From Bdellovibrionales bacterium (lineage in GTDB: Bacteria; Bdellovibrionota; UBA1018; CAIMNF01): DNA of 64,000 nucleotides. Below, piece after piece: positions 1 to 63,322 of the stretch; position 1 is the first letter of the stretch, and every line of letters starts with the position of its first letter. A program made the translations under genes and the position numbers. Location of the stretch: NCBI GenBank assembly GCA_947372355.1, contig CANBTI010000001.1, positions 18,296 through 82,295 on the forward strand, given 5' to 3'. Below the pieces are notes generated by a model. The model saw only the letters and a program-made list of their open reading frames with translations, did not search any database and was not told the DNA's origin.

Positions 1-1
1 T

Positions 2-2400: not shown

Positions 2401-2406
2401 ATTTTA

Positions 2407-2754: not shown

Positions 2755-4281
2755 ATGAAAAAGTCTATATTAGTATTATCGATCCTGATTCCGATGATTG
2801 CACATGCTGGCCCAGGTAAACCCAAGCATAAAAAATCACACACCAAGACACACGCTAAAGTGAAAGCAACTAAGGCAACTGAAGAAGTAGCCCCAGTAGT
2901 TGTTTCTGCACCAGTTGAAGCGAATCCATCAACAGGATTTAAAACACTTTCATCACTTGATCTTAAAGATGCAAACTTAACTTTAGGATTATCAGCCGAC
3001 CAACTACAAATTAGCGGAAATTTACCAAAAGAATGCGCCGACCACATCAGCATTAGTAACATTGAACGTTTTTCTTCATCAAAATCTGCTGATGATTTAA
3101 AAGGTGTTGATTCAGATAAATCTGTAGATTTAAAAGAATACTCTTCTACCATTCAAGCACAAATTACTTTTTGCACTGATGTAAAAACACCTACTTTAAA
3201 AGATTGTATTGCCAATGCAAAAAGTGGTTCAGAAATGGTTGATCTTTCCAAAGATCCAAACTTCTCTAGAACGGTATCGTTAAGCCCGGAACTCGCAATA
3301 GCCGGAATAGTTGGTGAACCAATGACCCTCAAATCTCCTGAATTCATCAAAATGGAAAAAGAGTTACAAAAATTAGATTGTAAAGAATGTAATTCAGATT
3401 GGAAACTTTTAAGCTCTCACCTTTCAGAAGCAAAAGAATTAAATTCACCTCTACTTGCCTCCATGATGAATAAACTTTTTGATGGTGCTCTTGTAGATAT
3501 GGATAAGAAAATTTCTGATAGCAACACCCTTAATTCTTTAGAAAAGATGAGAGATCAACTTTTAGAGATGAGCGCATATGCCACTACAGAAGAACAACGC
3601 GAGTTAGCTCTTAGTTTATTTGATAAAATTTCAGAAAAGAACCTAGCGCTTGCTGGTTCTGGATTCAAAACAGCTTCAATGGCAACAAAGCATGCAGATT
3701 TCGCAAAACAAACTTACTCAAAAGTAGCTAAGTTAGCTGGATTGTCTGCTGAAAAACGTGATGAATATAATGCAAAAGCAGCTGAGTTCACTATGGGAAA
3801 TGAAAAAAGAGTTCAATTTATCGCTTCCATTGATGGTGATCATCCGGAAGTTCGTCAGTATCTTAAAAATTCAGACAACGAACAGCTAGCATTGCAATAT
3901 CAAATTCAAAAAACCTGTTCAGGTTACATGAATCAATATAAATTTACACAATGCGGCGAACTTCAGAACAAATACTCTTCCAACCAACAAGCGGTTCAAG
4001 GTTTGCAAACTCAATTCAATCTTGCAGACAACAAAAACTGGAACGGAATTTTCTCTTACTGGGACAAGAAAAACATCTCTTACGATCAACAATGGAAAAC
4101 ATCCTTCATTCATCCAACTAATACAATTTCAACGAATTCCTTGCCTGTAATGTATGATCCTCGTGATCCTAAATATGCAAACTTCGATGCATCTAAACTT
4201 TATCAACCAAATATGATGATGCCTCAAGTGAACAGCGCTTATAACGAACAAACTTTTACAGTTACACCTTCGATTCATTAG
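2755..4281 (+). CDS. Secreted hypothetical protein (signal peptide, Lys-rich N-terminal region)
   Basis: ATG at 2755 preceded by the SD AAAAGAGGAA. Signal peptide MKKSILVLSILIPMIAHA. No recognisable domain. Followed by a strong terminator. Confidence 0.55.
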   Translation: MKKSILVLSILIPMIAHAGPGKPKHKKSHTKTHAKVKATKATEEVAPVVVSAPVEANPSTGFKTLSSLDLKDANLTLGLSADQLQISGNLPKECADHISISNIERFSSSKSADDLKGVDSDKSVDLKEYSSTIQAQITFCTDVKTPTLKDCIANAKSGSEMVDLSKDPNFSRTVSLSPELAIAGIVGEPMTLKSPEFIKMEKELQKLDCKECNSDWKLLSSHLSEAKELNSPLLASMMNKLFDGALVDMDKKISDSNTLNSLEKMRDQLLEMSAYATTEEQRELALSLFDKISEKNLALAGSGFKTASMATKHADFAKQTYSKVAKLAGLSAEKRDEYNAKAAEFTMGNEKRVQFIASIDGDHPEVRQYLKNSDNEQLALQYQIQKTCSGYMNQYKFTQCGELQNKYSSNQQAVQGLQTQFNLADNKNWNGIFSYWDKKNISYDQQWKTSFIHPTNTISTNSLPVMYDPRDPKYANFDASKLYQPNMMMPQVNSAYNEQTFTVTPSIH

Positions 4282-4308
4282 AATCTTTACTGTAATAAAT
4301 ATCCTTCG

Positions 4309-4350
4309 GTGCGCTTTAGTATGAGAATACTAGAGCGCACTGTTTTTTTT
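4309..4350 (+). terminator. Rho-independent terminator
   Basis: GTGCGCTTTAGTA-loop-TACTAGAGCGCAC stem followed by T8. Confidence 0.7.
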
Positions 4351-4435
4351 GTTTGACGTTCAACCCACTTAGCCGTTATTCCTATATATACAACGTTGCA
4401 ATAGATGCACAGTAATACAGCAAAGGGGATTTTTT

Positions 4436-4672
4436 ATGGCAGCTTCATCTAGTCAGCAGGCAAAAGGTACAGTTAAATGGTTCAACGACGCAAAAGGTTT
4501 CGGTTTTATTCAAACTGAAGTTTTAACGGGCGATATTTTCGTTCATTATAGCGCTATTCAAGGCGATGGTTTCAAAACCTTGTCTGAAGGACAAGCGGTT
4601 GATTTCGAACTAGTTACAGGTCCTAAAGGTCCACAAGCTTTCAATGTAATGAAAGCAGAATCAAACAACTAA
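4436..4672 (+). CDS. cspA: Cold-shock protein, CspA family
   Basis: [15 protein letters not shown] ... FVHYSAI ... RNP1/RNP2 motifs typical of the CSD fold. SD AAAGGGGA upstream. Confidence 0.9.
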
Positions 4673-4715
4673 TAACTTAAATCTGTGGTTTAAAAACAGA
4701 TGATTTTCGTTTTTA

Positions 4716-4750
4716 TAAAAAAGGCTTGTTCTTCGGAACAAGCCTTTTTT
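4716..4750. terminator. Bidirectional Rho-independent terminator between convergent csp and the M20-like gene
   Basis: A7-GGCTTGTTC-TTCG-GAACAAGCC-T6, flanked by A-run and T-run. A second hairpin ATCTGT..ACAGAT lies at 4681-4701. Confidence 0.7.
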
Positions 4751-4772
4751 GTTTATATTTTTTAATAAAAAA

Positions 4773-6215
4773 TCAGCCGCTCATGGCAAATATTAGATCT
4801 TGGTAATAATGGATCGCTTTTTGTAATTCTTCCCAAGTCACTTGCTCGTTAGGACCCTTTGGATGAGTGTTCATAGAACCCATACCCACAATCGATGTTG
4901 GAAACTTTGCTTTAACAAATAAACCTGCATCGCTCAGGTAATTAATGTTTTTTGAGCTGAGCACAAATTCCGATAAAGCACCCGGTACAGAATAGTTTTT
5001 CATCATTTGAAAATGAAGGTGTGGATAGTGAACTAAAGATTTAGAAACTATTTCTTTCCATTCCTTTTCAACAACATTTAGCAGGTGATTCGGCATTAAT
5101 CTTAGTTCAAATGAAAGTGAAATTTTCCCAGGACTCTTCATTTGAACGCGGGTAATTGAACCTTGGCTATTGGGTTGATCAAAACTTAAATTAGGTTGAA
5201 GATTCAACTTTTCAATAAATTGTTTCCACTCATAATCAAGGCGCAAAATTACTTCAACTAACTGTTGAGGGATAAAGCTTGCTCCAGTATCCGTGGCGTT
5301 AGAGTATTCAACCCTGAATGTACGCTCTAGATTTCCGTGACTAAGATGTGTTTTGATGAATTGTTTAAAGTCTTCGAATTGAAAAGTAGTTAGATATATT
5401 TTTACTTTTGCTAAATCAGGAACTGCACCCTCTGCACCCTTTACAGATAAAGATCCCCACTGGAAATCAAACCCTGCATCCGTTGCATCCAATAATAAGT
5501 TCATGAGTAAATCAAAAGAATTGGATGCATGATTTTTTTGTGCAAGATCTAAACTTAATCCTGTGGTTAAAATTTCCACACATCGATTATAACCCTTTGA
5601 ATCTCGCTCTTTTCCAGCAGCATCAACTTCAATTTGAAAAACAAGTTGCCCTGGTGATTGGTTGGTTTGTAAAAGTTGAGTGGGTGCAAATGTGTAAACT
5701 GATTTTGGATTTACAGAAAGGGATTCAACTAAATATTTAGAACCCAGCATTCCAAATTGGGATGCGCATGTCCCCACTAAATATATTGGTGTTTTGTGGC
5801 TTCTCTTTGGCAAATCTGCGGCACCAAATATCCTACACAGAAAATCGAGTTTGCCTTGTACGGCTCCAGCACCAACAATTTTATTCTCATCTACATAAGC
5901 TGCAAAAGGATTACCTTGTGTGAGAGTCCATTGAGCGGGAATGCTTCCGCTAGTAACATCCAATGGATTTACAAATAAAACTCCGTTACGCGTTGATCGA
6001 TCCACTAGCGTGTCTGAACTAAATCCAATTAAATTAGACTGACGTTTTGAAAGTCGCTCTACCGAATGACCTACGGGTTGAATTTGAGTTTTAAATCCAA
6101 ACTCGGTCATGAGTGCACGTAAATATAAAACTAATTCATCATTCCCATTTTCTTCATGAGAAGGAATACTAAGTACTTTTTTTGCACATTCTTTAAAATA
6201 ACTGAAATTTGGCAT
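4773..6215 (-). CDS. M20/ArgE/DapE-like family protein; catalytic metal-ligand motifs not evident
   Basis: N-terminal region (LSIPSHEENGNDELVLYLRALMTEFGF) and overall length resemble M20 peptidases. The usual H-x-D, GxxD and EE motifs are not recognisable. ATG at 6215 chosen (ORF track TTG at 6233). Confidence 0.3.
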   Translation of the reverse strand: MPNFSYFKECAKKVLSIPSHEENGNDELVLYLRALMTEFGFKTQIQPVGHSVERLSKRQSNLIGFSSDTLVDRSTRNGVLFVNPLDVTSGSIPAQWTLTQGNPFAAYVDENKIVGAGAVQGKLDFLCRIFGAADLPKRSHKTPIYLVGTCASQFGMLGSKYLVESLSVNPKSVYTFAPTQLLQTNQSPGQLVFQIEVDAAGKERDSKGYNRCVEILTTGLSLDLAQKNHASNSFDLLMNLLLDATDAGFDFQWGSLSVKGAEGAVPDLAKVKIYLTTFQFEDFKQFIKTHLSHGNLERTFRVEYSNATDTGASFIPQQLVEVILRLDYEWKQFIEKLNLQPNLSFDQPNSQGSITRVQMKSPGKISLSFELRLMPNHLLNVVEKEWKEIVSKSLVHYPHLHFQMMKNYSVPGALSEFVLSSKNINYLSDAGLFVKAKFPTSIVGMGSMNTHPKGPNEQVTWEELQKAIHYYQDLIFAMSG

Positions 6216-6283
6216 CTTACTTATAAATATCAAATACTTATTTTTCTTGCAATGTCATAGGCAAAATCGTTTAATGAAACAAA

Positions 6284-9310: not shown

Positions 9311-10327
9311 TTATCTTAAAAAGTCTAACAAAGTGGGTTGAATCAAATGTTTCGAACTAGCAAGACTGCTCTTAAAAACAGTCTCTTCTTTTGCCAAATC
9401 GCTTACAATTTGCGTCATGTCTGCATCTTCAATACTTGAACTTAACTGAGCATTGGCGATGTTGTGTCGATCCATCGTGTTGATATTACCTTGGATTCCT
9501 TGAACCCTTGAACCGATTTTAGAGCGGGTTGAAACCACTTTTCCCAAAAGATCGTCAAAACGCTCCAAAGTTCCGCGGATCGTTGATTGATCTCCGGTTA
9601 ATAATCCAATCCGCAAAGACTTCAACTCTTCAAATAAATTTACATTTGGTGAGGCGCCCGACTTTTCTTCCATGCCCTCAGTGGCAAGACGTCTAACGGG
9701 ATCAGGTTTTTTATCATCTAATGGTTTTGTCTGATCAAGCGTTCTTTGATTTAACTCTCTTTGATCGGTTGAGTTTTCTGGATTCGTATTAAAAATTTGA
9801 TGACCAGGAATATTCATCCCAATAAATACTTCTCGACCAATCTCTACCATCATCTCACCAGCATCACCGTGATAATTTCCGTCTGAATCTACAGGATTGG
9901 TTGTGTTCTTATAACCCCCAAAAAGAAATCGATCGCCGACTCTTCTGTTTGAAGTGGCGATGGCTCTTTGAAAAAGTTGATTCACTTCTTCGGAAACACC
10001 CAATCTTGTCTCTTTAGTAGAACTCGCGCTACTGGATTGGCCGATAGCAATTTCCTTTGCTCTCATCACAATCTCACTTAAATCCTCAAGAGCGGCATCA
10101 GTATTCTCTAAAAATGCTTGAGCTAATTTTGCATTAGACTGGAATTGTTCATTGTTCACTTTGTCGGTCCTCACTTCAAGAATTTTAGCCGATCCGACTG
10201 GATCATCTGAGGGCTTATTTAGTTTTTTTAGCGTAGAGTTTTTTAATTGAAGATCATCCATACGTGACTTTGATCTAGTCATGTTGTCTCGAACCACCCC
10301 AAAATTAGTGTTATCGCTGATTCTCAA
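9311..10327 (-). CDS. flgL: Flagellar hook-associated protein 3, FlgL
   Basis: Flagellin-like N- and C-terminal helices. Position immediately after flgK. Confidence 0.7.
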   Translation of the reverse strand: MRISDNTNFGVVRDNMTRSKSRMDDLQLKNSTLKKLNKPSDDPVGSAKILEVRTDKVNNEQFQSNAKLAQAFLENTDAALEDLSEIVMRAKEIAIGQSSSASSTKETRLGVSEEVNQLFQRAIATSNRRVGDRFLFGGYKNTTNPVDSDGNYHGDAGEMMVEIGREVFIGMNIPGHQIFNTNPENSTDQRELNQRTLDQTKPLDDKKPDPVRRLATEGMEEKSGASPNVNLFEELKSLRIGLLTGDQSTIRGTLERFDDLLGKVVSTRSKIGSRVQGIQGNINTMDRHNIANAQLSSSIEDADMTQIVSDLAKEETVFKSSLASSKHLIQPTLLDFLR

Positions 10328-10331
10328 TTAG

Positions 10332-11759
10332 TTACCCTCTTAACCTTAGTACAGTATCTAGCATTTCATCTGCCGTTTTAATTACTTTTGCTGAAGCATC
10401 AAATGCATGCTGAAATTGCATTAAATTCGTAGTTTCCTCATCGATCGAAACACCTGAAGTTTGTTCTCTCACTTTTCCAAGCTGAGCCATAATGCTTCTA
10501 TTTTGAGATAGAGTTTCGTTATTACGGGCATTCGTTACACCAATATCACTTACGATCGAGTTATAAAAATCGTCTGCAGTAGTGCGCCCGCCATTGAACA
10601 AATGAACATTTTGAAGGTTTGAAATTGCAAGTGCGTTGCGATTATCTCCCGGAGCATCTGGCTGAAGTGCGATTGCGATGTTTCCTACCGAGGAATGAAT
10701 GTCTTGTGACAATGCAAGTCTCTGAGCTGCTCCCTCTGGTCCATCCATTGGAGCAAAAAAACTGATTCCAGTTTTGCCGTCTGCCGTAAATCCCTTTTCA
10801 TGAAGTTCATTCACCGAACTGGCAACCGAAAATGCAAGTTGATCTAAACGATCTAAAACCATTGAAATGGATTTATCACGAGTTTCAATCAATGCACCTA
10901 ATTTACCATTTTTAAAACGATCAGTAAGATATTGAGTGCTGTGAGGTGAGCGAGCAATTTGTAATGAATTTGCAACACTTCCTTGATCCTCTTGAGCTGG
11001 TGCACGTCCCACATGATAAGATTCAAAATTTACACCCGTTACAATTGGTCCAACACCGCGAATGTCTACGTTCACCATTCCGCTGTTATCTTTAGTTACA
11101 TTTAAATCAACTAGTGTATTCATTTTTTTGATCACCATATCTCGGCGATCTTGTAAATCGTTGGCATCATTGCCTTGAATTTCAGCTACATGAATACGGT
11201 TATTCAATTCTGCTAGTTCTTTACCAAATGAAGTGAGCTCCTTCATGTTTCCATCAACACGGTTATCAACATGATTACGAATTTGTTCAACTTCTGTGCG
11301 AATTCTTCTAAAATCACCCACCATCGCTTGAGAAGATTCACGCACCGCTTGTCTTACTGCTTCACTAGATGGTTCACTAGAGAGCTTTCTAAAATCGTTA
11401 AAAAACTTTGCGACCAAGCGATTGAGTCCATCACCATTCATTTCATTGAAAACATCTTCAACTTGTCCTAAAAAAACTTGTTTTTCTTCGTTATAGGAAA
11501 GATCTCTCCCACCTTCACGAAGTTGTTTTTCAATATAATTATCGTTAATTCTTTCAATGCGAGAAAGCTTAGAGCCTTGGCCGTAGTAAGGACCACCTTG
11601 TCCAGCAATTTGATTTGTTACTTGAGCTTCAGAAACCGCACGTTGACGTGAAAATCCCTCAGTACCAGCATTCGAGATATTATGACCAGCGGTTGCGATT
11701 CCTGCTTTCGCAGTCGTCATTCCCGATTTTCCTGATTGAAAAACATTCAACAAGGCCAT
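10332..11759 (-). CDS. flgK: Flagellar hook-associated protein 1, FlgK
   Basis: N-terminus MALLNVFQSGKSGM...NISNAGTEGFSRQRA. C-terminal conserved helix. Confidence 0.8.
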   Translation of the reverse strand: MALLNVFQSGKSGMTTAKAGIATAGHNISNAGTEGFSRQRAVSEAQVTNQIAGQGGPYYGQGSKLSRIERINDNYIEKQLREGGRDLSYNEEKQVFLGQVEDVFNEMNGDGLNRLVAKFFNDFRKLSSEPSSEAVRQAVRESSQAMVGDFRRIRTEVEQIRNHVDNRVDGNMKELTSFGKELAELNNRIHVAEIQGNDANDLQDRRDMVIKKMNTLVDLNVTKDNSGMVNVDIRGVGPIVTGVNFESYHVGRAPAQEDQGSVANSLQIARSPHSTQYLTDRFKNGKLGALIETRDKSISMVLDRLDQLAFSVASSVNELHEKGFTADGKTGISFFAPMDGPEGAAQRLALSQDIHSSVGNIAIALQPDAPGDNRNALAISNLQNVHLFNGGRTTADDFYNSIVSDIGVTNARNNETLSQNRSIMAQLGKVREQTSGVSIDEETTNLMQFQHAFDASAKVIKTADEMLDTVLRLRG

Positions 11760-11765
11760 TTAAGT

Positions 11766-12308
11766 TTATACCTCTCTCGAAATTAATCTTGGACCATGCT
11801 CGTTCGCTGATGCTGTATTTTTTTGTCCCTGTTGGTTATAGGTTCTTGCTTGATGTGTGGTTTCACCGAAAATGTTTCTCTTCATATTATCAATATGCTG
11901 AAGAGACGCATTCACAAGGTTTCCATTCACTTCGTTTTGTTTTTTAATTCTTTCTACTAATAAAATTAAAACACTCAAATCAGATTGAAGTCTGCTCGAA
12001 ATTTCAAGATCATTGGATTGAAAGTGCAAAATTAATTCACGTAAGGACGGAGTTTTTGTTTCTAAATTTTGTTCTTGTGCTATTGCATACACAATCGACT
12101 GACGACTCATTTCAGATTGATGAATCCAATGAATCAAAGCTTCTTTTGCTGCTGCTGCTTCATAAGTAGCCTTAACGTCTGCATTGGTAATTGCTTCGTT
12201 TTCTGATTTAACTACATCGTTCAATTGTCGGTGTAACCCAATCAAATCCTGTAAGGATCCGTGAAGTTTTTCCGATAATTTTTCCGATAATTTTTTTTCT
12301 GTTTCCAT
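11766..12308 (-). CDS. FlgN-like flagellar chaperone (putative)
   Basis: Helical coiled-coil protein of about 180 aa directly upstream of flgK. Start taken at METEKK. Contains a KLSEKLSEKL duplicated motif. Confidence 0.4.
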   Translation of the reverse strand: METEKKLSEKLSEKLHGSLQDLIGLHRQLNDVVKSENEAITNADVKATYEAAAAKEALIHWIHQSEMSRQSIVYAIAQEQNLETKTPSLRELILHFQSNDLEISSRLQSDLSVLILLVERIKKQNEVNGNLVNASLQHIDNMKRNIFGETTHQARTYNQQGQKNTASANEHGPRLISREV

Positions 12309-12359
12309 TTTCATCCTCACCCGCATCCTGCTCGGAGGTTAATTGGTTTTGTTAAAAAC

Positions 12360-12686
12360 TTATGCGCCAGCTAAACGAATGTGATCATCCACTAGTTTAT
12401 CAGCAATTGCATCTGCTCCAACATTGTATTTTTTATTTTGAATGCGCTCTTTGAGTTCAGCGATTTTTGCTTCGCGCACATCAGGAGTATCTGCCGCGAT
12501 TTGCTTTGCTTTCGCCATATCTTTTGCTTTTGAAGAAATCTCTGCGTTTGCAGATTCACTCTTCGGAGCTGAAATAGATTCTTCTGATTTATTTTCATAA
12601 CCAGAGATTTTTGACTTTTCTATTTTTTTGGTATCTGAACTTTGAATGCCTGAACTACCGGCTGCAATGTTTGAATTAATCTTCAT
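12360..12686 (-). CDS. flgM: Anti-sigma-28 factor FlgM
   Basis: C-terminus KIAELKERIQNKKYNVGADAIADKLVDDHIRLAG matches the FlgM sigma-28-binding region. Start taken at MKINSNIAAG (the ORF track's upstream extension is unlikely). Confidence 0.65.
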   Translation of the reverse strand: MKINSNIAAGSSGIQSSDTKKIEKSKISGYENKSEESISAPKSESANAEISSKAKDMAKAKQIAADTPDVREAKIAELKERIQNKKYNVGADAIADKLVDDHIRLAGA

Positions 12687-13035
12687 GTGTACCTCCTGTA
12701 CCTTGAGACCTATTATTATTATACTTTGGCTGTGGTTGTGAGCGCAACCAATAATCAATAATTTGTTGAGAAAGTCCTAAAGAATTGCCCTTTGCTGAAA
12801 TATCCGCATACTCTTGGTCAAGCATTCCCTGATAAATATCTGACGCTGAATTATGCAATGAAAACTCGTTTGGTTCGCCTTGTGTTTTTTTCATCGCGTC
12901 CATCATCATAGAAGTGAATTGAGCCTCTAAACCCTCGGCAGCCTTACGCATTTCCGGTGAGATCCTAGGATCGTCATTATTTTGATGCTGCGTTTTAATC
13001 GGTGGAATTTGGGGGGGGGTTGAGGAGGGTTTCAT
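12676..13035 (-). CDS. Flagellar rod-binding protein (FlgJ N-terminal-domain-like)
   Basis: AEGLEAQFTSMMMDAMKKT...SDIYQGMLDQEYADISAKGNSLGLSQQI matches the rod-binding (FlgJ N-terminal) family. No muramidase domain. Overlaps flgM by 11 nt. Confidence 0.6.
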   Translation of the reverse strand: MKPSSTPPQIPPIKTQHQNNDDPRISPEMRKAAEGLEAQFTSMMMDAMKKTQGEPNEFSLHNSASDIYQGMLDQEYADISAKGNSLGLSQQIIDYWLRSQPQPKYNNNRSQGTGGTHED

Positions 13036-53768: not shown

Positions 53769-53918
53769 TTATTTACCAGCAACAGTAGGAACGAGGCGTT
53801 TACGGCCGCGAGCACGACGACGAGCTAATATTTTTTTTCCACCGGCAGTCGCTAAACGAGTGCGGAAGCCATGGGTGTTAGTTCTCTTCTTACGAGATGG
53901 TTGATACGTACGTTTCAT
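53769..53918 (-). CDS. rpmH: 50S ribosomal protein L34
   Basis: Manually translated (below the ORF-track size cutoff): [49 protein letters not shown]. Confidence 0.9.
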
Positions 53919-54002
53919 AGTCGTAATGACTTATCGGATAAGTGGCCTCATTGTCAATCCCACAAGTTCATGTTAGTTAAGTACGTCGCAGGTAGTATAA
54001 CC

Positions 54003-55466
54003 ATGAATGATTTAAATCTTTGGGCAACAGCATATCGTCAGATTCTCCAAAACCACGCAAATCCAACCGAAATGAAGTTTTGGCTTGATGCGTTAAATTG
54101 GGGTAAGCTCGAACCTATGGCTTCTGGTAAGGTGCATATATTTCTCACAGCACCCAGCGTATTTTATGCAAACTTTATTAATCAACAATTTAAGGCCGAA
54201 ATCGAGAGCGCTACCTCTCAAATTTTAGGTAAATCCTGTGAAGTTTCAATCGCCGTATTAGAATCTAAGCCCGCTGAAGAAGTAGAAGAAGCAATTATAT
54301 CTATCAGTAATACTTCAGTAAATAACACTTTTGAAAACCCTTTGTCTCCACCTACCGCTTCTGATTTTACTCCAGCAATGGCTCAATCTAATCAAAGTTC
54401 CCCTTCTCCAGGTTTTGTGAATCGTGGATCTCATAAATCAAATGTAATCATTAATGATTTTTTAGACCCAACTTTAACCTTTGATAACTACATCATGGGG
54501 CCTTCAAATCAATTTGCTTATGCATCCGCTTTTTCAACTTCAGAAAAACCAGCCGTTCAATACAATCCACTTTTTATTTATGGCCCTCCAGGAGTTGGAA
54601 AAACCCATCTATTGCATGCTTTAGGTAATCAAATAAAAAAGAAAAATCCTCATATTCGGGCTTATTTTGTTTCGGCTGAAAAATTTGTGAACGAATTTAT
54701 CGAAAGCATACAACATAAAAATCCAGGCGATTTTAGGGCTAAATACCGCGATAATGTTGATCTTCTTCTCATCGACGATATTCAATTTATCGTGGGTAAG
54801 GATCGTTCAGAAGAAGAGTTTATCCATACCTTCAATACATTACACAGTCTTAAAAAAATGATTGTTCTTACTTCTGATAAAGCGCCAAAAGACATCGATG
54901 GTTTAGAGGACCGAATTCGTACTCGTTTTGAAATGGGACTGGTTGCTGATATTCGCCCGCCAGAAATTGAAACTCGCATTGCAATTTTAAAAGCAAAAGC
55001 GGAAGCAGACGACATGTATTTGCCAGATGATGTTGCAACATTTTTAGGTACCTATGTAAAAGATACGGTCAGAAACCTTCATGGTGCTTTAGTAAAGCTT
55101 CAACAATATGCTTCACTCACAGGCTCAGAAATAACTTTAGATTTAGCTAAGCAAGTTTTACAAAACTCCATTCCTGAAGAAGGACAAGAATACACAGTTG
55201 AAATAATACTCAATGCTGTTTGTAAGCACTTTAATCTTAAGATGAAAGAACTAAAGGGAACATCCAGAGCAAAACAGTTTTCTATGCCTCGCCAAATTGC
55301 CATGTATCTGATTAGAAAATACGCAAATTTAGGATTTAGAGAAGTAAGTCAGATTTTTGACAAAGATCACTCCACCGCAGTTCATGCTTATCAAAAAATC
55401 GAACTGGAGATGGAATCTGACCCTGAACTAAAGAGAAATGTGGAAACCATTAGAGAGCAGCTGTAA
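54003..55466 (+). CDS. dnaA: Chromosomal replication initiator DnaA
   Basis: AAA+ Walker A GPPGVGKTHLLHA, sensor motifs, and a C-terminal DNA-binding domain. Start taken at MNDLNLW. The ORF-track N-terminal extension runs antisense through rpmH and is rejected. Confidence 0.9.
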   Translation: MNDLNLWATAYRQILQNHANPTEMKFWLDALNWGKLEPMASGKVHIFLTAPSVFYANFINQQFKAEIESATSQILGKSCEVSIAVLESKPAEEVEEAIISISNTSVNNTFENPLSPPTASDFTPAMAQSNQSSPSPGFVNRGSHKSNVIINDFLDPTLTFDNYIMGPSNQFAYASAFSTSEKPAVQYNPLFIYGPPGVGKTHLLHALGNQIKKKNPHIRAYFVSAEKFVNEFIESIQHKNPGDFRAKYRDNVDLLLIDDIQFIVGKDRSEEEFIHTFNTLHSLKKMIVLTSDKAPKDIDGLEDRIRTRFEMGLVADIRPPEIETRIAILKAKAEADDMYLPDDVATFLGTYVKDTVRNLHGALVKLQQYASLTGSEITLDLAKQVLQNSIPEEGQEYTVEIILNAVCKHFNLKMKELKGTSRAKQFSMPRQIAMYLIRKYANLGFREVSQIFDKDHSTAVHAYQKIELEMESDPELKRNVETIREQL

Positions 55467-55596
55467 AAAGCGTCAAATTAGCCACATTAATCAAATAAAC
55501 TATAATAAAATAAAATAATTTCATTTAAATTTCTTACAAAACGTAAGAACCTATTATTAGGCCTGGGGCGCAAGGATGCTTCACGGGAGGATAATT

Positions 55597-58500
55597 TTGG
55601 TTTCAAGGATGAAGATTTTTAAAAAAGTTTCTACACTTTTCTCAGTGTTATTCATAACTCTGAGCCCTTCTACGTCCTTTGCTAACTGGACACGTTATCA
55701 AAATTATAAAATAAAATTAGACGTTCCAACAGGCTGGAAAATTGAGCGTGATCTTTTTGGAATGCCAATTACCGTATTGGGTCCTGAAAGAAATGGAGAG
55801 CGTGCAGTACTGAGTGTTCAGCACACCCCCGTTTTTGGTTTAGAATTTAATCATCAAAATATAGTTAAAACTAAAAATCAATACTATGAAGGAAGAAAAA
55901 AATGGGTTGATTCACTTGAAGACGCTTCTTTTTTAAGTGAAATTCCATACCAACACATAAAGCAAGAAAATGGGAACGACGGCTTTGAAATGGGTTTTAG
56001 ATACCATGTCAGAAACCTCGACTTAGAAGAAAAAAGTATTCAATTGAATTGTGGAAATCGACTTTTTTTAATTAAAACTCTTTCAAGCAATAAAATTCCT
56101 GAAGCAGATACCGCTCAATTAGCAAAATTAGTGAATGAGTTAGATTGCGTTTCTACCACTTCAAAAGATGGCGCTTATGAACCAAGCGTTCTTCAAGATT
56201 TTGATCGTAAATTTAAGGATCAAATATCTGGAACTTCACCTTGGCCTACAAAAGAGCAAATTAAAGATTCTGGCACACCTGAAAAAGCAGTCATGCTTGA
56301 AGCATTGGTAGAGTTCTATAAAAATTACGAAAATTCTGGAGGAGAAGATTCTTATTCATACAATCGTAATCCAGTTAAAGATCAATATTTTGCAAAAATT
56401 AAAGATAGAACAGATCAAATTTTTTCAATCTTCTTATCTAAAGCGTCTGCAAAAGATGGTTATGATTGTTTTTTTGGTGGTTGGCCAAGTAAATTTATAA
56501 AAAAGAATGGTGTAGCTACCTGTGGTTATCCATGGGAAACAAATTCAGATTATTCAAAAAACAATTCTGGCTGTGGAGAAGGAAAACTAGGCTGTAACCC
56601 TTCTCTATTTGGATCAAATATTTGTGTTGATGTAAGCAATAGCGGCGAACGATCACATGCTACTCTTTCTTGCGAAATGGGTTTTCGCTCTAGTGGTAAA
56701 AGTTACGAAGATGTTGTTAAATCAGCTGATTTTGATCAATCCGTTCTAAATAACACTCTAAACTCAGCAAAAGAAGTGTGCAGTCAGGAACCATATACCT
56801 CAGCAAATTATGGTTTATGTTCAACCCTTAAAGAAAAATTAGGAATCAGTATCTCATCCGGAAAACATGCTCAAGATGAATCCGATGTAAAATTTATTAA
56901 TGGCATGGAAGAAATGAAGCCAGAAAATTTTGATGAATATGTAAAGGCTACAGAAAAAAACTATAAAGAATTTGAAGCTCGATGCATCGACGAAAAGGGT
57001 GATCTTAAAACAAATGTTGAAGGATGTTTAGAGGATCATTTAGCCATTTTAAATGACTTAGAAAAAATTGATAAAAGATCAAAAGATATTGGGCAAGAAT
57101 TACAAGAAGAAGATGCACCAAACTCAATCAATAATGGAAATTGTTCAAAGGCAGACTGTAGTTCACCCACTGTTGAAAGTGTTCAACCTAAAAAGGATGA
57201 ACCATCAAATGGTAAGTGTTCAGTTCAAGAGGAAAAAAGAAAAAAAGAAAAAGAATGTAATTGGTCTAAGGGTATGTTCATGGCAGGAAGTTGTGCTTGG
57301 AATGTAATCACTTCAATGGTGAGTTCATTGTGGGGAACAATCAAAGCAATAGGTGAGCTTGCGTGGGATGGTGTGAAGTGGGTTGGGAATAAATCTGTTC
57401 AGGGTGCCAAATGGCTTGCTAGTTTGGTTGGTTATGAAGATGAATCATCTAAAAAATTAAATACAGCTGCACAAACGAGTAATAGCGCAATTGAATCTTT
57501 CAAAAAAGATCCAATGGGATCTGCTATCAATTTTTTCAAAAGTATCTATGATGGTGTTGTAAATTTTGTTTCTACTGATGTTGCCTGCGAAAAATGGTCT
57601 GGCGTTCCACACAATTCAACATGTTTATTGCCTGCAAGTGGTTGGAAATGTATGCCTTGCATGGATCGAATGGATACCGTTTGTTCAACAGTAGGATATG
57701 TTGCGGCTGAATTTCTACCTGCTTTCTTCACCGGTGGAGCAACTTCTGCTTTAAAAGGATCTGCAATCGCTGCAAAAGTAGGTGGATATCTTGGTAAAGT
57801 GAGTAAGCTGGGGAAACTCACTCGACTAGAAGCTGATATTATAAAACTTACGAGTAAAGCAACTAAAGTAGAAAGATACGGCTTAAGAGCAGCTAAATAT
57901 GAATCAGAAGTTTTAAAAGCAGAAATCGGTATTGCTGGAAATTTAAGTAAAACACAAAAAATTATTGGAAAAGTTTATAATGTAAGCCGCTGGCCAGTTA
58001 AACAATTCAATAAAATAAAGAGTGCATATACCCGTGCAAAAAATGTATTAACTGGGTTTAAATCTAAGGCCTTTGGTTCTGTTAAAAATACAATTGAAGG
58101 ATTACAGAGACTACGAAAAAAATATTATGTTGTTAAAGCTGGTTCATGGGTAGTTGAAAACACTGTTGTTCAACCATTAAAATTAGCAGCAAAAATAGCA
58201 ACCGCTCCTATTCGTTATCCAATGAGATGGACAAATAGTTATGTCAGGACACAAGCGAAGATATATAAGGTAGGACTAAGATTTGGAGAAAAAAGATTTA
58301 ATGATGTGTTGGTAAAATCAGCAAGCATGAGTAAGTATCCAACCTTAGCTAAAAACATAGCTTTATATAGCTCTATTTCTAAATATCCTGCATTTGGCTC
58401 TCATATGTTGGATGAGTTTAGAGAAAGACTCAGCATGAAAGATGATAACAATCCAAATATGTTTTGGAAATCATCCCATGAAATTGAAGTACAAGCTAAA

Positions 58501-59121
58501 CTTGATGGTAAAAATCCTGAGGAAGTAAAATCAATTCTAAAGAAAAACAGGATCGATTTAATGACTAATACAATCGTTATGGATGCCTTAAATGCGGGTA
58601 AAGATCCAAAAGAAGTGGATTTAAAATACCTTTCAAAAATTAGAGGGATTTCCAATGAAGAAATTCGTGTGGAATCAATCGATTCAAGACTTCAAGCAAT
58701 TGCCAATGGAACTTTGCCAACTTTCACTCAAAGTGATTATGATGCAATAGCAAAAATTAATAAGATCAGTTCAACAGAAGCAAAAAATCAAATTCAAAAT
58801 GAAGTTAAAATTCAAGTTGCTTCATCAAAGGTAATCAATCTTTTGAATGAGGGTAAAAAACCAGAAGATGAGGCATTGAAAAATCTAGCATCACTCAAAA
58901 AAGTGAACGTTGATGAACTGGTAATTGAATCCATTGATTATAGAATTAATTCTGTATTGGGCGGAGTAAAACCAAAGTTTTCTAGTTTTGATTATGAAAC
59001 ATGGGCAAGAGTAAATCATGTCTCTATTGAAGAGGCTAAAAAGTATATCGATTCTGAAGTGCAGGATTCATTAAATATGATTTCTGATCCTTCATCAACT
59101 AATGGAGCAAAAACGCAATGA
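55597..59121 (+). CDS. Large secreted Cys-rich hypothetical protein (cassette gene A, about 1175 aa)
   Basis: Probable TTG start at 55597, 6 nt after the SD GGGAGGA. Signal peptide ...LFITLSPSTSFA. The N-terminal domain carries a DVPTGWK motif. The middle is cysteine-rich. The C-terminus carries two tandem repeats of about 70 aa. Confidence 0.55.
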   Translation: MVSRMKIFKKVSTLFSVLFITLSPSTSFANWTRYQNYKIKLDVPTGWKIERDLFGMPITVLGPERNGERAVLSVQHTPVFGLEFNHQNIVKTKNQYYEGRKKWVDSLEDASFLSEIPYQHIKQENGNDGFEMGFRYHVRNLDLEEKSIQLNCGNRLFLIKTLSSNKIPEADTAQLAKLVNELDCVSTTSKDGAYEPSVLQDFDRKFKDQISGTSPWPTKEQIKDSGTPEKAVMLEALVEFYKNYENSGGEDSYSYNRNPVKDQYFAKIKDRTDQIFSIFLSKASAKDGYDCFFGGWPSKFIKKNGVATCGYPWETNSDYSKNNSGCGEGKLGCNPSLFGSNICVDVSNSGERSHATLSCEMGFRSSGKSYEDVVKSADFDQSVLNNTLNSAKEVCSQEPYTSANYGLCSTLKEKLGISISSGKHAQDESDVKFINGMEEMKPENFDEYVKATEKNYKEFEARCIDEKGDLKTNVEGCLEDHLAILNDLEKIDKRSKDIGQELQEEDAPNSINNGNCSKADCSSPTVESVQPKKDEPSNGKCSVQEEKRKKEKECNWSKGMFMAGSCAWNVITSMVSSLWGTIKAIGELAWDGVKWVGNKSVQGAKWLASLVGYEDESSKKLNTAAQTSNSAIESFKKDPMGSAINFFKSIYDGVVNFVSTDVACEKWSGVPHNSTCLLPASGWKCMPCMDRMDTVCSTVGYVAAEFLPAFFTGGATSALKGSAIAAKVGGYLGKVSKLGKLTRLEADIIKLTSKATKVERYGLRAAKYESEVLKAEIGIAGNLSKTQKIIGKVYNVSRWPVKQFNKIKSAYTRAKNVLTGFKSKAFGSVKNTIEGLQRLRKKYYVVKAGSWVVENTVVQPLKLAAKIATAPIRYPMRWTNSYVRTQAKIYKVGLRFGEKRFNDVLVKSASMSKYPTLAKNIALYSSISKYPAFGSHMLDEFRERLSMKDDNNPNMFWKSSHEIEVQAKLDGKNPEEVKSILKKNRIDLMTNTIVMDALNAGKDPKEVDLKYLSKIRGISNEEIRVESIDSRLQAIANGTLPTFTQSDYDAIAKINKISSTEAKNQIQNEVKIQVASSKVINLLNEGKKPEDEALKNLASLKKVNVDELVIESIDYRINSVLGGVKPKFSSFDYETWARVNHVSIEEAKKYIDSEVQDSLNMISDPSSTNGAKTQ

Positions 59122-59654
59122 AAACAATACTGTCAATTTTATTAGTCATCTGTGGTGCAAAAGCATTTGGTGAATCTAAAAATTACAACATTCAAAATCA
59201 AAAAATTACGATTGATGTGCCAACAGGATGGAAAGATGTTGAAGATTTTGCTGGCAGTCCACTCACCTTTTTTGGGCCTGAAAATAAAGACGGACCAAGA
59301 ACAGTAGTAACCATTTCACCAACTGGACAAGAAGATAAAAATCATTTTTTCGCTGATATGAAAAAAAATATCGCTGGTTATAAAGTTGGACGTGAGGATT
59401 GGTTAAAAGGGAATTTTGGAACCTCCATTTCTTACGATAAATATAAGGAAGAAAAATGGACTGGGATAGAAGTAGCTCGCGAATTTGGTTATCATTACGA
59501 ACTACCAAGCGGAAAGTTTTATGAAAGATCCGTTTATGTGATGTGCGGTGGTAATAAACTTGTGTACATCAAATCATTAGTTCCAGAACAGTTTGAATCA
59601 ACTCATAATTCGTTAGTAGAAAAATCAATTAAAAGCTTAGGGTGCGCAAAATGA
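59118..59654 (+). CDS. Secreted small protein paralogous to the N-terminal domain of cassette gene A (cassette gene B)
   Basis: Signal peptide MKTILSILLVICGAKAFG. Shares DVPTGWK..GPE..C-G-N-L..IK-L...LGC blocks with residues about 40-190 of gene A. Its start overlaps the gene A stop (ATGA). Confidence 0.55.
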   Translation: MKTILSILLVICGAKAFGESKNYNIQNQKITIDVPTGWKDVEDFAGSPLTFFGPENKDGPRTVVTISPTGQEDKNHFFADMKKNIAGYKVGREDWLKGNFGTSISYDKYKEEKWTGIEVAREFGYHYELPSGKFYERSVYVMCGGNKLVYIKSLVPEQFESTHNSLVEKSIKSLGCAK

Positions 59655-61762
59655 AAAATACAGATCAACAAAACGGAAAAATAATCATGAACTCATTATC
59701 AAAATTATTGGCTTTTGCAATTTGTTTACAGCTAACGGTAGGAATTTATCCAGTTCAAAACCACATGGCTTATGCGCAAGATGATCGTAGTATCAGTACT
59801 AATGAAAGTAAGGCAAATCGTGGGCCTGCTTCAGATAATTTGAATATGGATGCTAATGAAGCTAATGATCATTCTAAAAATTATATTAAATTATTTAATG
59901 ATCAATGTGTTGGTTCAAATGGAAAAATAAAAGGCAGTACTGCTTTTATGCATGATAAGGAAATCGGTTCTAGTGAAGAACCAAGAATGTATAATTGTTC
60001 TGAAGCGGCAACAATAATTCAAAAAATTATTATACCAGGAATGAATGATATTTCTGAAGAAGTAAAACATTCAAAAATAAATCCAAACTGCCCTACTTGT
60101 GGAATTCCAAACCAAGATGAAGATTCTGTTAAAAATGGTCAGCTGGTTTCGGGATCATGTTCTGCAGAAGAACAAAAGAAGTTTGCTAAACAAGATTGTT
60201 CCTTTGGTTGCAATATTTTATATACCATTGGTTCACAAGATAAAAGTTGCCCTAAATCTTCTGGTATTTCTGGAAAATGCGCACTTGAAATTTCAAAAGG
60301 CGTTTTAAAAGGTATTTATGATGTTCTTGCTTTTCCATTCATTATGGTAAAAGACGCCGGTGTTTGGACATATAATAAAATTTTTGGCAAATCCGAGAAT
60401 GAAACTACAGAAAAATCACAAGTTCTTAGTGGTTTAACAGATCAAGATATTAAGGATGGGGAAAAAAATCCTGAAAAATTAAAACAAACTTTACTTCAAA
60501 GATCTGCAAAATTCTTTAATGATCTTGGAAAAGCAATTATTGGTTATCCCGAGTATGAGGAAAAATCAAAATGTGCTGATTGTGCTGCTAAAGCAGATCT
60601 TATGTGCGGTGTTATAGGTAATACTAGCGGATTTTTAATCACAATGTTTGGTAATGGAGCAATTTTTGGTGCTACTGAAGGTATTGCTGAAAGAATTGCA
60701 TCAAAACTTGTTAAGGTATCAAAAGGTACAGGCAAATTTGCTAGTATTGCTAGTAAAACTATACTCGTAGCTGAAAAAACTAGTTTAGCTGCTACTAAAG
60801 TTGGTAAATTTGTTTCTAAGCCATTTATTCGTTTTGGTGAAGTTGTGGCGAGTGGAGCCTCAAAAGTTTCTGTTTCAAGTTTAAAATGGTGGGAGTCTTT
60901 TAAATCAAAAAAATTATATGAAAATTTAATTAAATTTAAAGATTCTAGATCTTTAAAAGTTGTATCTAACTCAATCCCAGGAAAAATAACACTTTCGATC
61001 GGGCGTGGAGTTAGTAATAGTTTTGAAAAAGCAGGTGTTTTCGTTAAAAAAATTGGTAAGGTTGCTAGTAATATTCAAGAAACTACTCATGATTTTGGTC
61101 TTGGATTAACTAATTCAAAGTTATTAAGAGCTCAAAAAATTAATAAACTTAGATCAGCTAAGGCTGCAGCTAATGCTACAAATGAAGCTCTTCGTGGAGT
61201 GGATGAACTTAAAGTAGTGAAAGATGCTTCTGAAGGCAGAACTGCTGAACAGTGGACTGATTTAAAACAAAAAGCTTCCAATGAACTTCAGGGCTTAAAA
61301 GTGAAACATTTGGATGATGTTGAAAATGCGGTGCCAGCCGAATTTGAAATTAATGCAGGAAAAGAAAAAAGTATTCTTGTTGAAACTTCAAAAGGAACGC
61401 GTGAATTAAAAATCGCAAAACCTGCTGATGTTGAAAGCATCCATACTTATCAAGATGGAAAATTAGCCATCGTTCAACATAGAGATGGTTCATACATCAT
61501 TCATGATATGGATGCCGGTTCTCACCTCACCCAAGTTCCAAAAGGAAAAGAAGAGTTTGTAGATGCTCTTCTTGGTAAGAAAACTAAGAACTTTGATGAT
61601 CTTGAAGGCATGTCTTACACACAAGTGAAGACAAACTTAAAAATCAACGGAACTAAGTTTACTGAAGAAGTAGATGCAACTGGAGCTAAAACAATGAAAA
61701 TTGAAACTCCAAATGGATGTAATCCGAAATCACTCAGTTTTGGTGTGGATAAAGCGATCTAA
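59642..61762 (+). CDS. Secreted Cys-rich hypothetical protein paralogous to the central module of cassette gene A (cassette gene C)
   Basis: Signal-like LSKLLAFAICLQLTVGIYPV (alternative start MNSL at 59687). Shares the blocks C-x2-C-x5-C-x2-(I/V)G...F..G(A/G)..G...I..K and C..G..G.CA...G.L.GIYDVLAFP with gene A. Overlaps gene B by 13 nt. Confidence 0.5.
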   Translation: MRKMKNTDQQNGKIIMNSLSKLLAFAICLQLTVGIYPVQNHMAYAQDDRSISTNESKANRGPASDNLNMDANEANDHSKNYIKLFNDQCVGSNGKIKGSTAFMHDKEIGSSEEPRMYNCSEAATIIQKIIIPGMNDISEEVKHSKINPNCPTCGIPNQDEDSVKNGQLVSGSCSAEEQKKFAKQDCSFGCNILYTIGSQDKSCPKSSGISGKCALEISKGVLKGIYDVLAFPFIMVKDAGVWTYNKIFGKSENETTEKSQVLSGLTDQDIKDGEKNPEKLKQTLLQRSAKFFNDLGKAIIGYPEYEEKSKCADCAAKADLMCGVIGNTSGFLITMFGNGAIFGATEGIAERIASKLVKVSKGTGKFASIASKTILVAEKTSLAATKVGKFVSKPFIRFGEVVASGASKVSVSSLKWWESFKSKKLYENLIKFKDSRSLKVVSNSIPGKITLSIGRGVSNSFEKAGVFVKKIGKVASNIQETTHDFGLGLTNSKLLRAQKINKLRSAKAAANATNEALRGVDELKVVKDASEGRTAEQWTDLKQKASNELQGLKVKHLDDVENAVPAEFEINAGKEKSILVETSKGTRELKIAKPADVESIHTYQDGKLAIVQHRDGSYIIHDMDAGSHLTQVPKGKEEFVDALLGKKTKNFDDLEGMSYTQVKTNLKINGTKFTEEVDATGAKTMKIETPNGCNPKSLSFGVDKAI

Positions 61763-62218
61763 TACTGGTTAATTAATATTATCTATAAGTAACAAATAGT
61801 TACGTTATAATTAATATTTCATCCCCCAGTTAGTGTTCTTTTATTTTCTTATAACCTGTTTTTGAACCATGAATTAACCGCTTATCCACATTCATTTGTG
61901 GATAGTTATGGTGGATAATTGTTTTATTGAACCTATTAAATTCAGTTTAATTATTATTTTATTTAGTAATTGGATACTTTTGGTGAATAAGCTGGTGAAT
62001 GACCATATGCTTCTTGGTTTTAATGGATTTTTCTTTTTTATCCCCAAACTTTGAATTAATATTCACCTTTGTTTTAAACCATTATAAAACATAGATTCAT
62101 GTTTAATTTTAATTAGTTAGAGGGTTTTCCACCTAATTCACACTACTATGACTACTATGATCTTTATATATAAATACTTCTATGAGAGTAATTTGAGATT
62201 CGAGGTTGTGGATAAGAT
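61763..62218. other. Candidate chromosomal replication origin (oriC): DnaA-box cluster plus AT-rich unwinding region
   Basis: TTATCCACA at 61882-61890. Reverse-orientation boxes TGTGGATAG (61897-61905), GTGGATAAT (61911-61919) and TGTGGATAA (62207-62215). Near-box TTATCCCCA at 62037-62045. Flanked by very AT-rich stretches. Confidence 0.7.
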
Positions 62219-63322
62219 ATGAAATTTAATATTCAAAGAGATCATCTTTTAAGTGCATTACAAAAAATTTCTTCAGTGATTGAAAAGAAACATACCATGG
62301 AGATTCTGGGTAATATTCTTTTTGAAGCAAAGAATGATCAACTCACTCTTTCAGGAACAGATCTTGAAGCAGGAATTCAAATCACTTTAGATGCACAAAT
62401 TCAAGAGCCAGGTAAGTTAACACTTTCTACAAAAAATATTACCGACATCACTAAAGAATTACCAAACCAAGTGATGCACTTTAATTTAAAGCCAAATCAT
62501 TGGGTTGAAATTACATGCTCTAAAGCTAGATTCAACGTTGTGAGTATTTCAGCAGAGGGTTATCCTAATCTTCCTCTCTTTGAAGAAAAAAATTATATCT
62601 ACGCTAATTCAGAACGATTAAATGAAATGATCGAAAAAACTGAGTTTGCAGTTTCAACCGATGCTACTCGTTATCATTTGAATGGAGTTTATTTTGAATT
62701 ACTTCCTTCTGGAATGATTCGAATGACAGCAACCGATGGTCATCGTCTTTCTTATATTGATCATGAAGTTTTTACTAAACCCATTGATTTAAAACGTGGA
62801 GTGGTAATTCCTAAAAAAGGATTAACAGAGCTTCATAAAATGCTTCAAGGAACTAAAAATATAGGAATCGCTTTTGAGAAGGGTTATTTATATGCCAAAT
62901 CAGAAGGTGCTTTTTTATTCATTCGTTTGATTGAAGCTGACTACCCTGATTACCGACAAGTCATTCCTCAAAATTTAGATAAAACTGCAATTCTAAAACG
63001 TGAAGATCTTTTAGGTGCTTTAAAAAGAGTTTCCCTCATGGCTCATGAAAAAAGCAAAGGGGTTAAAATCAGTGTTCAAAATGATTTAATGACCGTTGCT
63101 TCTTCAAATCCTGATATGGGTGAAGCCCGTGATGAAATTAGTATGAAATATCAAGGTGAAGCAGTTGAAATTGGATTCAATGCTAAATACATTATGGAAT
63201 GTCTTGAAGTGATGAAGGATCCAGAAATTGAATTACACTTTAAAGACAAAACCAAACCAGGTTTAATTCAATCGGTAGCGCATAAAAATCATTGTTATGT
63301 AATTATGCCGATGCGTATCTAG
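62219..63322 (+). CDS. dnaN: DNA polymerase III beta sliding clamp
   Basis: N-terminus MKFNIQRDHLLSALQKISSVIEKKHTMEILGNILFEA. Three-domain clamp of 367 aa. C-terminus ...VIMPMRI. Confidence 0.9.
   Translation: MKFNIQRDHLLSALQKISSVIEKKHTMEILGNILFEAKNDQLTLSGTDLEAGIQITLDAQIQEPGKLTLSTKNITDITKELPNQVMHFNLKPNHWVEITCSKARFNVVSISAEGYPNLPLFEEKNYIYANSERLNEMIEKTEFAVSTDATRYHLNGVYFELLPSGMIRMTATDGHRLSYIDHEVFTKPIDLKRGVVIPKKGLTELHKMLQGTKNIGIAFEKGYLYAKSEGAFLFIRLIEADYPDYRQVIPQNLDKTAILKREDLLGALKRVSLMAHEKSKGVKISVQNDLMTVASSNPDMGEARDEISMKYQGEAVEIGFNAKYIMECLEVMKDPEIELHFKDKTKPGLIQSVAHKNHCYVIMPMRI

Follow-up and report, generated by a model that had tools for sequence, protein, structure and literature searches.

Among proteins with a PsbP fold, LpqN and DcrB act in cell-envelope biogenesis, Tsi3, TplEi and Tli4 protect their producers from type VI secretion system (T6SS) effectors, and the idea that PsbP/MOG1-like genes encode adaptors was later realised as the Eag chaperones. 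This idea had been proposed for PsbP/MOG1-like genes adjoining T6SS toxins (PMC3482391). Here we analysed a cassette of three genes, A, B and C, in a stretch of 64,000 nucleotides from a Bdellovibrionales bacterium, an uncultured relative of the predator Bacteriovorax (GenBank assembly GCA_947372355.1, contig CANBTI010000001.1, positions 18,296 to 82,295; the whole 64-kb stretch is called the window below), and found no description of the A-B-C cassette in the literature. The cassette belongs to a large, previously undescribed modular family, and the locus defines a family of ~900 clusters, three new sequence modules and a rule by which a PsbP-like module is either fused to its partner or encoded beside it. 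In its logic the closest analogue is the Eag (DUF1795)-effector pairs of the T6SS (EagT6-Tse6, SciW-Rhs1), and the theme of a PsbP-fold accessory beside a modular effector would be extended from cytoplasmic T6SS chaperones to the periplasm.

According to the list of open reading frames (ORFs) of the window, three ORFs, A, B and C, run in the same direction between dnaA (end 55466) and dnaN (start 62219). An earlier note on this DNA had described their products as modular paralogs, with B matching the N-terminal domain of A and C sharing two blocks with the middle of A, and pairwise as well as profile alignments bore this out. The cassette is built as follows:

55576..59121, + strand: gene A, up to 1181 aa, with ATG 55609 as the likely start (MKIFKK...), signal peptide at residues 12-36
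55687..56160, + strand: A module 1, predicted PsbP/Mog1 fold, residues 38-195, homologous to full-length B
56443..56871, + strand: A module 2, Cys-rich, residues 290-432 (DCFFGGWPSK...CNPSLFG), with invariant cysteines and no counterpart in B or C
57109..57879, + strand: A module 3, the helical, Cys-containing 'Central' module, residues 512-768, homologous to C residues 139-390
57880..58455, + strand: basic Cys-free region of A, residues 769-960 (net +3 to +12 per 50 aa across residues 751-950)
58576..59055, + strand: C-terminal tandem helical repeats of A, residues 1001-1075 and 1086-1160 (36% identity, E 8e-18)
59118..59654, + strand: gene B, 178 aa, signal peptide and one predicted PsbP/Mog1-fold domain, start overlapping the A stop (ATGA)
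59651..61762, + strand: gene C, 703 aa from ATG 59651 (706 aa from GTG 59642), start overlapping the B stop (ATGA)
60056..60811, + strand: Central module of C, residues 139-390 in the 706-aa numbering, homologous to A residues 512-768
60190..61200, + strand: hypervariable segment of C, comprising the basic region and a portion of the Central module, from the comparison with the close relative L013

B is homologous along its full length to A residues ~37-195: composition-adjusted BLASTP aligned B 1-176 with A 18-191 at E 1e-19 and 30% identity, the family profiles (19 A-type and 20 B-type sequences) aligned in hhalign with a probability of 99.4 and E 9e-22, and the Smith-Waterman score was 179 versus 30 +/- 4.8 for shuffles (z 31). 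For A and C, composition-adjusted BLASTP aligned A 512-768 with C 139-390 at E 6e-8 and 20% identity, hhalign of the family profiles gave a probability of 99.5 and E 2.5e-22 over 215 columns, and the shuffle z was 18, or 15 with shuffling inside 20-aa blocks that keeps the local composition. The two blocks noticed earlier turned out to be opposite ends of a single continuous module of ~235 residues, in which eight cysteines stand in register and are invariant or nearly so in both families. Comparisons of B with C, and of C 41-138 with A 201-511, showed no significant similarity, and the first ~130 residues of C match nothing in A. The earlier note had itself raised the possibility that the similarities merely reflect Lys/Gly/Ala-rich low-complexity composition. 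This describes the basic tails of A and C, which are alike in composition only, the Smith-Waterman score of C 391-706 against A 769-1181 staying under the best shuffle. For both modules the composition-adjusted E-values, the profile-profile E-values of ~1e-22, the shuffles and the cysteine register speak against it, so that the compositional explanation is already refuted there and keeps practically no probability.

The predicted structure of B and that of A residues 38-195 superpose on PsbP/Mog1, an alpha-beta-alpha sandwich with a central antiparallel sheet. The structural comparison list for B comprises, with the values as listed, cyanobacterial PsbP (13.0), LpqN (11.8), the T6SS immunity protein TplEi (11.5), PA0094 (1tu1; 11.2), which we take to be EagT6, Tsi3 (11.0), Mog1 (9.9), DcrB (9.2), SciW (8.5) and Tli4 (8.2), and the structure search with the A N-domain returned the same list. 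Judged by these models, B and A residues 38-195 belong to the PsbP/Mog1 structural superfamily. At the sequence level the module has at most 15% identity to PsbP, PsbP-like and PNSL lumenal proteins, LpqN, MTC28, Apa and DcrB; the context here is neither photosystem-related nor mycobacterial, and the module is tied to a specific Cys-rich partner family. B itself had no match to Pfam PsbP (PF01789), PsbP_2 or DcrB at E<=1, and in the B family weak sub-threshold PsbP matches were seen for 14 of 20 members (best E 1.7e-4), PsbP_2 matches for three and a DcrB match for one of the 20. The AlphaFold2 model of A, made from a 19-sequence alignment, has a mean predicted local distance difference test (pLDDT) score of 64. 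Its N-domain (residues 38-193) is a confident alpha/beta domain (pLDDT 80-90), followed by the Cys-rich domain at residues 296-430 (70-85), an all-helical Central region at residues 550-760 (50-80), the basic stretch at residues 760-960 with mostly low confidence and the confidently modelled C-terminal helical repeats (80-90), of which A-family members show one to three matches each in scans with module hidden Markov models (HMMs). No credible structural or sequence relative of the parts of A beyond the N-domain was found in the PDB, and PDB sequence searches with all three family profiles gave no matches. Scans of A, B and C against Pfam, NCBIfam and PADLOC placed none of the three in a family; weak matches to SdiA-regulated, WD40 and T7SS_Rv3446c were below threshold and were treated as noise.

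A, B and C each have one N-terminal hydrophobic signal-like segment (encoded at ~59684-59776 in C) and no other transmembrane (TM)-like stretch. All 22 cysteines of A lie before residue 704 and 13 of the 14 cysteines of C before residue 351. Together, signal segments and cysteine distribution point to Sec-exported, disulfide-bonded proteins. A reading of the hydrophobic-looking Central segments as TM helices or pore formers was not supported, as no 19-aa window outside the signal peptides attains a Kyte-Doolittle mean of 1.3.

Word-seeded homologue searches had found 18 relatives of A, 18 of B and nine of C, all of them metagenomic, and badly underestimated the family size. An exhaustive HMMER search of 1.84 billion cluster representatives with the A-family profile yielded 891 clusters with E<=1e-3, of which 626 reach E<=1e-10; the clusters combine PsbP-like, Cys-rich and helical Central modules in different ways; 18 relatives of gene A are full-length. 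Architectures were scored on 187 sequences with module HMMs cut from the A alignment, and the following classes were seen:

Central only (C-type): 69 of 187 proteins
PsbP only (B-type): 31 of 187
CysRich-Central: 29 of 187
Full A-type: 18 of 187
CysRich only: 15 of 187
PsbP-CysRich-Central with long extra tails: 13 of 187

A signal-like hydrophobic segment begins ~85-90% of the proteins in all architecture classes, including 27 of the 31 stand-alone B-like proteins. Central-bearing proteins have tails of up to ~1970 residues, with Fic domains in at least eight proteins (P0096, P0107, P0113, P0136, P0166 and three more), a PI3_PI4_kinase domain in P0118 and Gln_deamidase_2, RamC_N and GGDEF in others. 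Among 94 proteins whose tails exceed 300 aa, cysteines make up a median of 4.0% of the N-terminal modules versus 0.0% of the tails, a distribution to be expected if the tails have to pass through a membrane or are active in a reducing compartment. The wider family, in which Cys-rich N-terminal modules are conserved and Cys-free tails vary, has the appearance of a polymorphic effector family. Matches in the genome collection come from metagenome-assembled genomes (MAGs) labelled Oligoflexia, Bacteriovoracales and Bacteriovorax. The Cys-rich module (DCFFGGWPSK...C[NQ]P.LFG) was also found directly after the signal peptide of other Bacteriovoracales MAG proteins (L005:714-2294, L006:9641-11812, L007:1924-3894 and L008:4050-5342), whose C-termini are ATLF-type Zn-metalloproteases or YkuD_2 L,D-transpeptidases. 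The Cys-rich module of A may be an envelope- or peptidoglycan-targeting domain.

Family members that lack a PsbP module have a B-like gene next to them in all four loci with readable DNA:

L010, 3140-3673: B-like gene (hhalign against the B family, probability 99.2, E 8e-20), overlapping the start of a 1449-aa PI3_PI4_kinase protein
L011, 890-1423: B-like gene (hhalign probability 98.2), abutting a 1463-aa Fic protein
L016, 4468-5007: B-like gene (hhalign probability 99.3), overlapping a 943-aa family member
L012, 5435-5998: B-like gene (hhalign probability 97.2), adjacent and divergent to a CysRich-Central member

On a fifth contig, read from its gene list only, an unfused member has a 173-aa neighbour. 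Two fused long forms at unrelated loci (P0056, P0063) have no neighbour of ~170-190 aa lacking another Pfam domain, these neighbours not having been compared with the B profile. The numbers are small, and the pattern of fusion or neighbourhood reads as a Rosetta-stone signature that predicts a PsbP-like protein working physically with the Central-module protein; in the window the rule pairs B with C, and A carries its own copy of the PsbP module. A specific interaction is thus predicted, that of the PsbP-like partner with the Central module. The pair of B-like and Central-first genes in L016 lies between two flagellin genes (2430-4308) and a Flp/Tad pilus cluster (9773-12832), which could be a hint at a link to surface appendages or a coincidence.

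B and C had been proposed to represent a second copy of A that was split. An A-like gene that was duplicated and then broken up and re-partitioned inside the cassette would account for the order of B and C, which is the module order in A, for their position next to A and for their ATGA coupling. We nevertheless regard it as very improbable, as the identities to A are merely 30% for B and 20% for C, and pairs of B-like and Central-first genes occur at unrelated loci without any A. The nearest non-orthologues of B are stand-alone PsbP-like proteins of other loci with 38-39% identity, compared to ~30% for A N-domains. The Central module of C forms a divergent branch whose best non-orthologue is a Central-first protein (26% identity, E 2e-11) and which matches A-type modules only around E 1e-5; the Central module of A is 30-37% identical to many family members. 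B plus C covers only two of the five or more modules of A and lacks the A linker, the Cys-rich module (residues 290-432) and the C-terminal repeats, and ~130 N-terminal as well as ~315 C-terminal residues of C have no counterpart in A. Furthermore, all of the cassette-bearing loci examined (the window, L013, L002, L003, L001 and L004) keep A, B and C as separate orthologues, with A identity down to 30%, and the dnaA-cassette-dnaN synteny was found in six of six A-type loci. The claim of a split copy that arose inside this cassette is therefore not supported. B is no recent derivative of A, and the data fit better with A and B-C as two old paralogous versions, one fused and one split, of one two-part unit.

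In L004 (positions 1-6283, an Oligoflexia MAG) only A is inverted and converges on dnaA, and the B-like and C-like genes keep the dnaA direction, which makes A and B-C separable as transcription units. L003 (CALPVV020000009.1) shows the full dnaA-A-B-C-dnaN-recF-gyrB synteny and is labelled as a 'Nitrosovibrio sp. Nv4' MAG; since its gene order matches that of the Bacteriovoracales-like window, a mistake in binning or labelling is probable.

In order to compare evolutionary rates, the window was aligned with its close relative L013, a 414-kb scaffold, which gave the following amino-acid identities, synonymous rates (dS) and ratios of nonsynonymous to synonymous rates (dN/dS):

yidC: identity 99.6%, dS 0.056, dN/dS 0.032
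rnpA: identity 99.1%, dS 0.061, dN/dS 0.065
dnaA: identity 98.4%, dS 0.39, dN/dS 0.019
A: identity 95%, dS 0.45, dN/dS 0.049
B: identity 92%, dS 0.32, dN/dS 0.13
C: identity 76%, dS 0.62, dN/dS 0.22
dnaN: identity 99.7%, dS 0.045, dN/dS 0.025

The flanks are 98-99% identical in nucleotides, and a 7.5-kb divergence island with 85-95% nucleotide identity extends from ~54,000, inside dnaA, to ~61,400 (L013 8400-15800). In the middle of C (60,300-61,200) nucleotide identity falls to 55-67%, the hypervariable stretch at 60190-61200 has 40-75% amino-acid identity, and the last ~100 codons of C are again nearly identical to L013. Overall dS in the island is 0.3-0.6, with values above 1 in numerous 60-codon windows of the A and C genes. 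Positive selection was rejected: all genes have dN/dS below 1, and the 60-codon windows of A and C stay far from 1 (highest ~0.37). The high dS of the block favours recombination import over positive selection in situ, and it suggests that the island is an imported divergent allele that includes part of dnaA, although it may instead stem from MAG assembly chimerism. Thus, of the description of the proteins as a fast-evolving secreted family, the secreted part holds, the likeness to polymorphic effectors holds for the wider family and the middle of C is indeed hypervariable, whereas 'fast-evolving' fails as a general label: the dN/dS test showed no elevation. Clade-wide, B is the best conserved of the three, with 64% identity where A and C have ~40%.

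As to the function of the A, B, C family, we consider the chances about evenly balanced that it is a delivery or targeting system made of a PsbP-fold adaptor, a Cys-rich targeting chassis and a Cys-free delivered tail. Such a system would be a two-part unit, wide in Bdellovibrionota/Oligoflexia-like bacteria, consisting of a PsbP-fold partner and a Sec-exported, disulfide-rich Central protein that would continue into a basic stretch and then into a Cys-free, lineage-variable C-terminal cargo. A carries the PsbP module fused in cis together with an extra Cys-rich, envelope-associated module, and in B-C the PsbP module is a separate protein translationally coupled to C. By Rosetta-stone logic and in parallel to DUF1795/Eag, the PsbP-like module would bind the Central module or its vicinity as a periplasmic chaperone or adaptor. 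The Cys-rich N-terminal parts would stay outside and target or translocate, and the Cys-free tail would be the delivered or active part. In the window the tails of A (helical repeats) and C (an alpha/beta region) may have non-enzymatic activities, which could be aimed at prey or at the predator's own envelope.

As in the Eag pairs, the B gene adjoins its partner, with the ATGA overlap of B and C and the arrangements in L010, L011, L016 and L012. Eag chaperones are cytoplasmic and have no signal peptide, whereas B and its partners have Sec signal peptides and would meet outside the cytoplasm. Eag partners have N-terminal TM helices and PAAR/Rhs, whereas the partners of B show no TM-like segment beyond the signal peptide and no PAAR/Rhs match in Pfam. 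The Eag pairs stand in a T6SS context, but no T6SS genes were seen in the loci read here, and Eag chaperones are separate proteins, whereas the PsbP module here is fused to the putative effector in many members. The wider family is also like the polymorphic toxin systems (Zhang et al. 2012, PMC3482391) in its conserved N-terminal chassis with exchangeable C-terminal enzyme domains and in its adjacent PsbP/MOG1-like accessory gene, and the window locus is hypervariable within the species, with signs of recombination. In contrast to these systems, no known trafficking domain (type V secretion system/contact-dependent inhibition, T6SS, type VII secretion system, Photorhabdus virulence cassette, MuF) was found here, A and C of the window have no identifiable toxin domain, and the cassette is a fixed syntenic core locus. 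Only Sec-type signal peptides were seen. B follows A, only oriC and dnaN follow C, and the window contains no orphan toxin/immunity cassettes.

The same arrangement could be read differently, with B as a periplasmic immunity protein and A and/or C as toxins that act in the periplasm. B bears a signal peptide like Tsi3, TplEi and Tli4, B-like genes always abut a large gene and B of the window lies directly downstream of A. We consider this unlikely, since A and no fewer than 35 further clusters bear the PsbP module as a cis fusion at the N-terminal end of the putative toxin, which is unusual for an immunity domain, and the B-like gene of stand-alone pairs lies upstream and not downstream of its partner. 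Moreover, B varies least of the partners (92% identity, compared to 76% for C), and cognate immunity proteins usually co-vary with their toxin; the Fic, kinase and deamidase tails work in a cytoplasm and not in a periplasm. The PsbP-like T6SS immunity proteins Tsi3, TplEi and Tli4 thus differ from the present case, with its partner-first order, its often cis-fused module and a B that is more conserved than C. The enzyme tails of the family (Fic, deamidase, kinases) are directly testable for toxicity. Protein delivery into prey by Bacteriovorax-like predators is little understood, and no function has been predicted for many of the genes specific to their lineages.

The position of the cassette at the replication origin is defined by the following flanking features:

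53871..55466, + strand: dnaA, from the ORF list, with Bac_DnaA Pfam domains on the orthologues in L001, L002 and L013
55479..55506, + strand: promoter-like site TAGCCA-16-TATAAT in the dnaA-A spacer, a consensus match only
61744..62215, no strand: oriC-like cluster of DnaA boxes (3 perfect, 3 one-mismatch) in the AT-rich C-dnaN spacer
62219..63322, + strand: dnaN, from the ORF list, with DNA_pol3_beta domains on the orthologues

The cluster holds all perfect TTATCCACA DnaA boxes of the window, and the cumulative GC-skew has its minimum at ~54-56 kb. A DnaA-box cluster between C and dnaN is also present in L013, L002, L003 and L001, where the dnaA-A spacer has at most one box. The layout is rpmH-rnpA-yidC on the opposite strand, then dnaA, A, B, C, oriC, dnaN, recF and gyrB, so that a 6.2-kb three-gene operon separates dnaA from oriC. 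In cultured Bdellovibrio and like organisms (BALOs), including B. bacteriovorus, B. exovorus and Halobacteriovorax marinus, the gap between dnaA and dnaN is an oriC spacer of ~230-250 bp (Makowski et al. 2016, PMC5124646). The window shares the flanking genes of their conserved rnpA-rpmH-dnaA-oriC-dnaN-recF-gyrB cluster and the DnaA-box cluster directly upstream of dnaN, but where the BALO cluster has only the oriC spacer between dnaA and dnaN, the three-gene operon is inserted here (PMC5124646). The normally very conserved dnaA-oriC-dnaN arrangement is thus broken in an uncultured clade by a conserved 6.2-kb operon, and the inserted operon coincides with the recombination or divergence island that reaches into dnaA. 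With a 4-nt ATGA overlap at both the A-B and the B-C junction, the sole upstream promoter-like site in the dnaA-A spacer and no terminator-like site on the + strand within A-B-C, the cassette reads as a translationally coupled operon. Further copies of the A, B and C modules were not found elsewhere in the window by tblastn, and an Rfam scan of the window gave no matches.

This setting would also suit a lineage-specific housekeeping envelope complex unrelated to conflict, to which the origin-proximal site gives high dosage and stable inheritance. The synteny is fixed in all six loci down to 30% identity, dN/dS is 0.05-0.22 across the cassette genes, the operon is translationally coupled, A and C have no toxin domain and the Cys-rich module co-occurs with peptidoglycan enzymes (YkuD_2). 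However, relatives bear classic effector domains on the same N-terminal chassis, the middle of C is hypervariable in a block that forms a divergence island between near-identical genomes, and the cultured BALOs have no insertion at the dnaA-dnaN site, so that the cassette is not universally essential (PMC5124646). We therefore find the housekeeping explanation doubtful.

Several observations nevertheless weigh against delivery or targeting. Strong purifying selection, fixed synteny and the position at dnaA/oriC suit a housekeeping envelope role equally well. Scans with Pfam, NCBIfam and PADLOC revealed no enzymatic or toxin domain in A and C, the cassette has no neighbouring genes for secretion systems or translocation, and the signal peptide of B sets it apart from the cytoplasmic Eag chaperones. 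In the wider family, several Fic matches are near or under the Pfam gathering score, most tails have no Pfam match (at least 31 of the 41 tails scanned), and the taxonomic spread is read from MAG labels and GC content only. A bolder version of the delivery reading would be a hitherto undescribed Sec-dependent effector-delivery system of predatory or host-associated Bdellovibrionota, in which a periplasmic PsbP-fold adaptor, free or fused, hands a disulfide-locked helical translocation module and its Cys-free cargo (Fic, kinase, deamidase or another activity) to prey or host cells, and in which the ancestral copy at dnaA-oriC is timed to the onset of replication at the switch from attack to growth. 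This we regard as rather improbable.

Two minor observations concern dnaA and its downstream spacer. A one-mismatch DnaA box, TTAGCCACA, at 55478 overlaps the -35 element of the promoter-like site of A and is kept in L013 and not in L001-L003; the idea that DnaA generally controls the A promoter was rejected, this box being conserved only in the closest relative L013. The longest ORF of dnaA has an N-terminal extension of ~44 codons (53871-54003) that is absent from the orthologues, which start with MN(D/E)LNLW. In a relative the dnaA start has been called at the codon equivalent to 53970, and the real start is probably near 54003.

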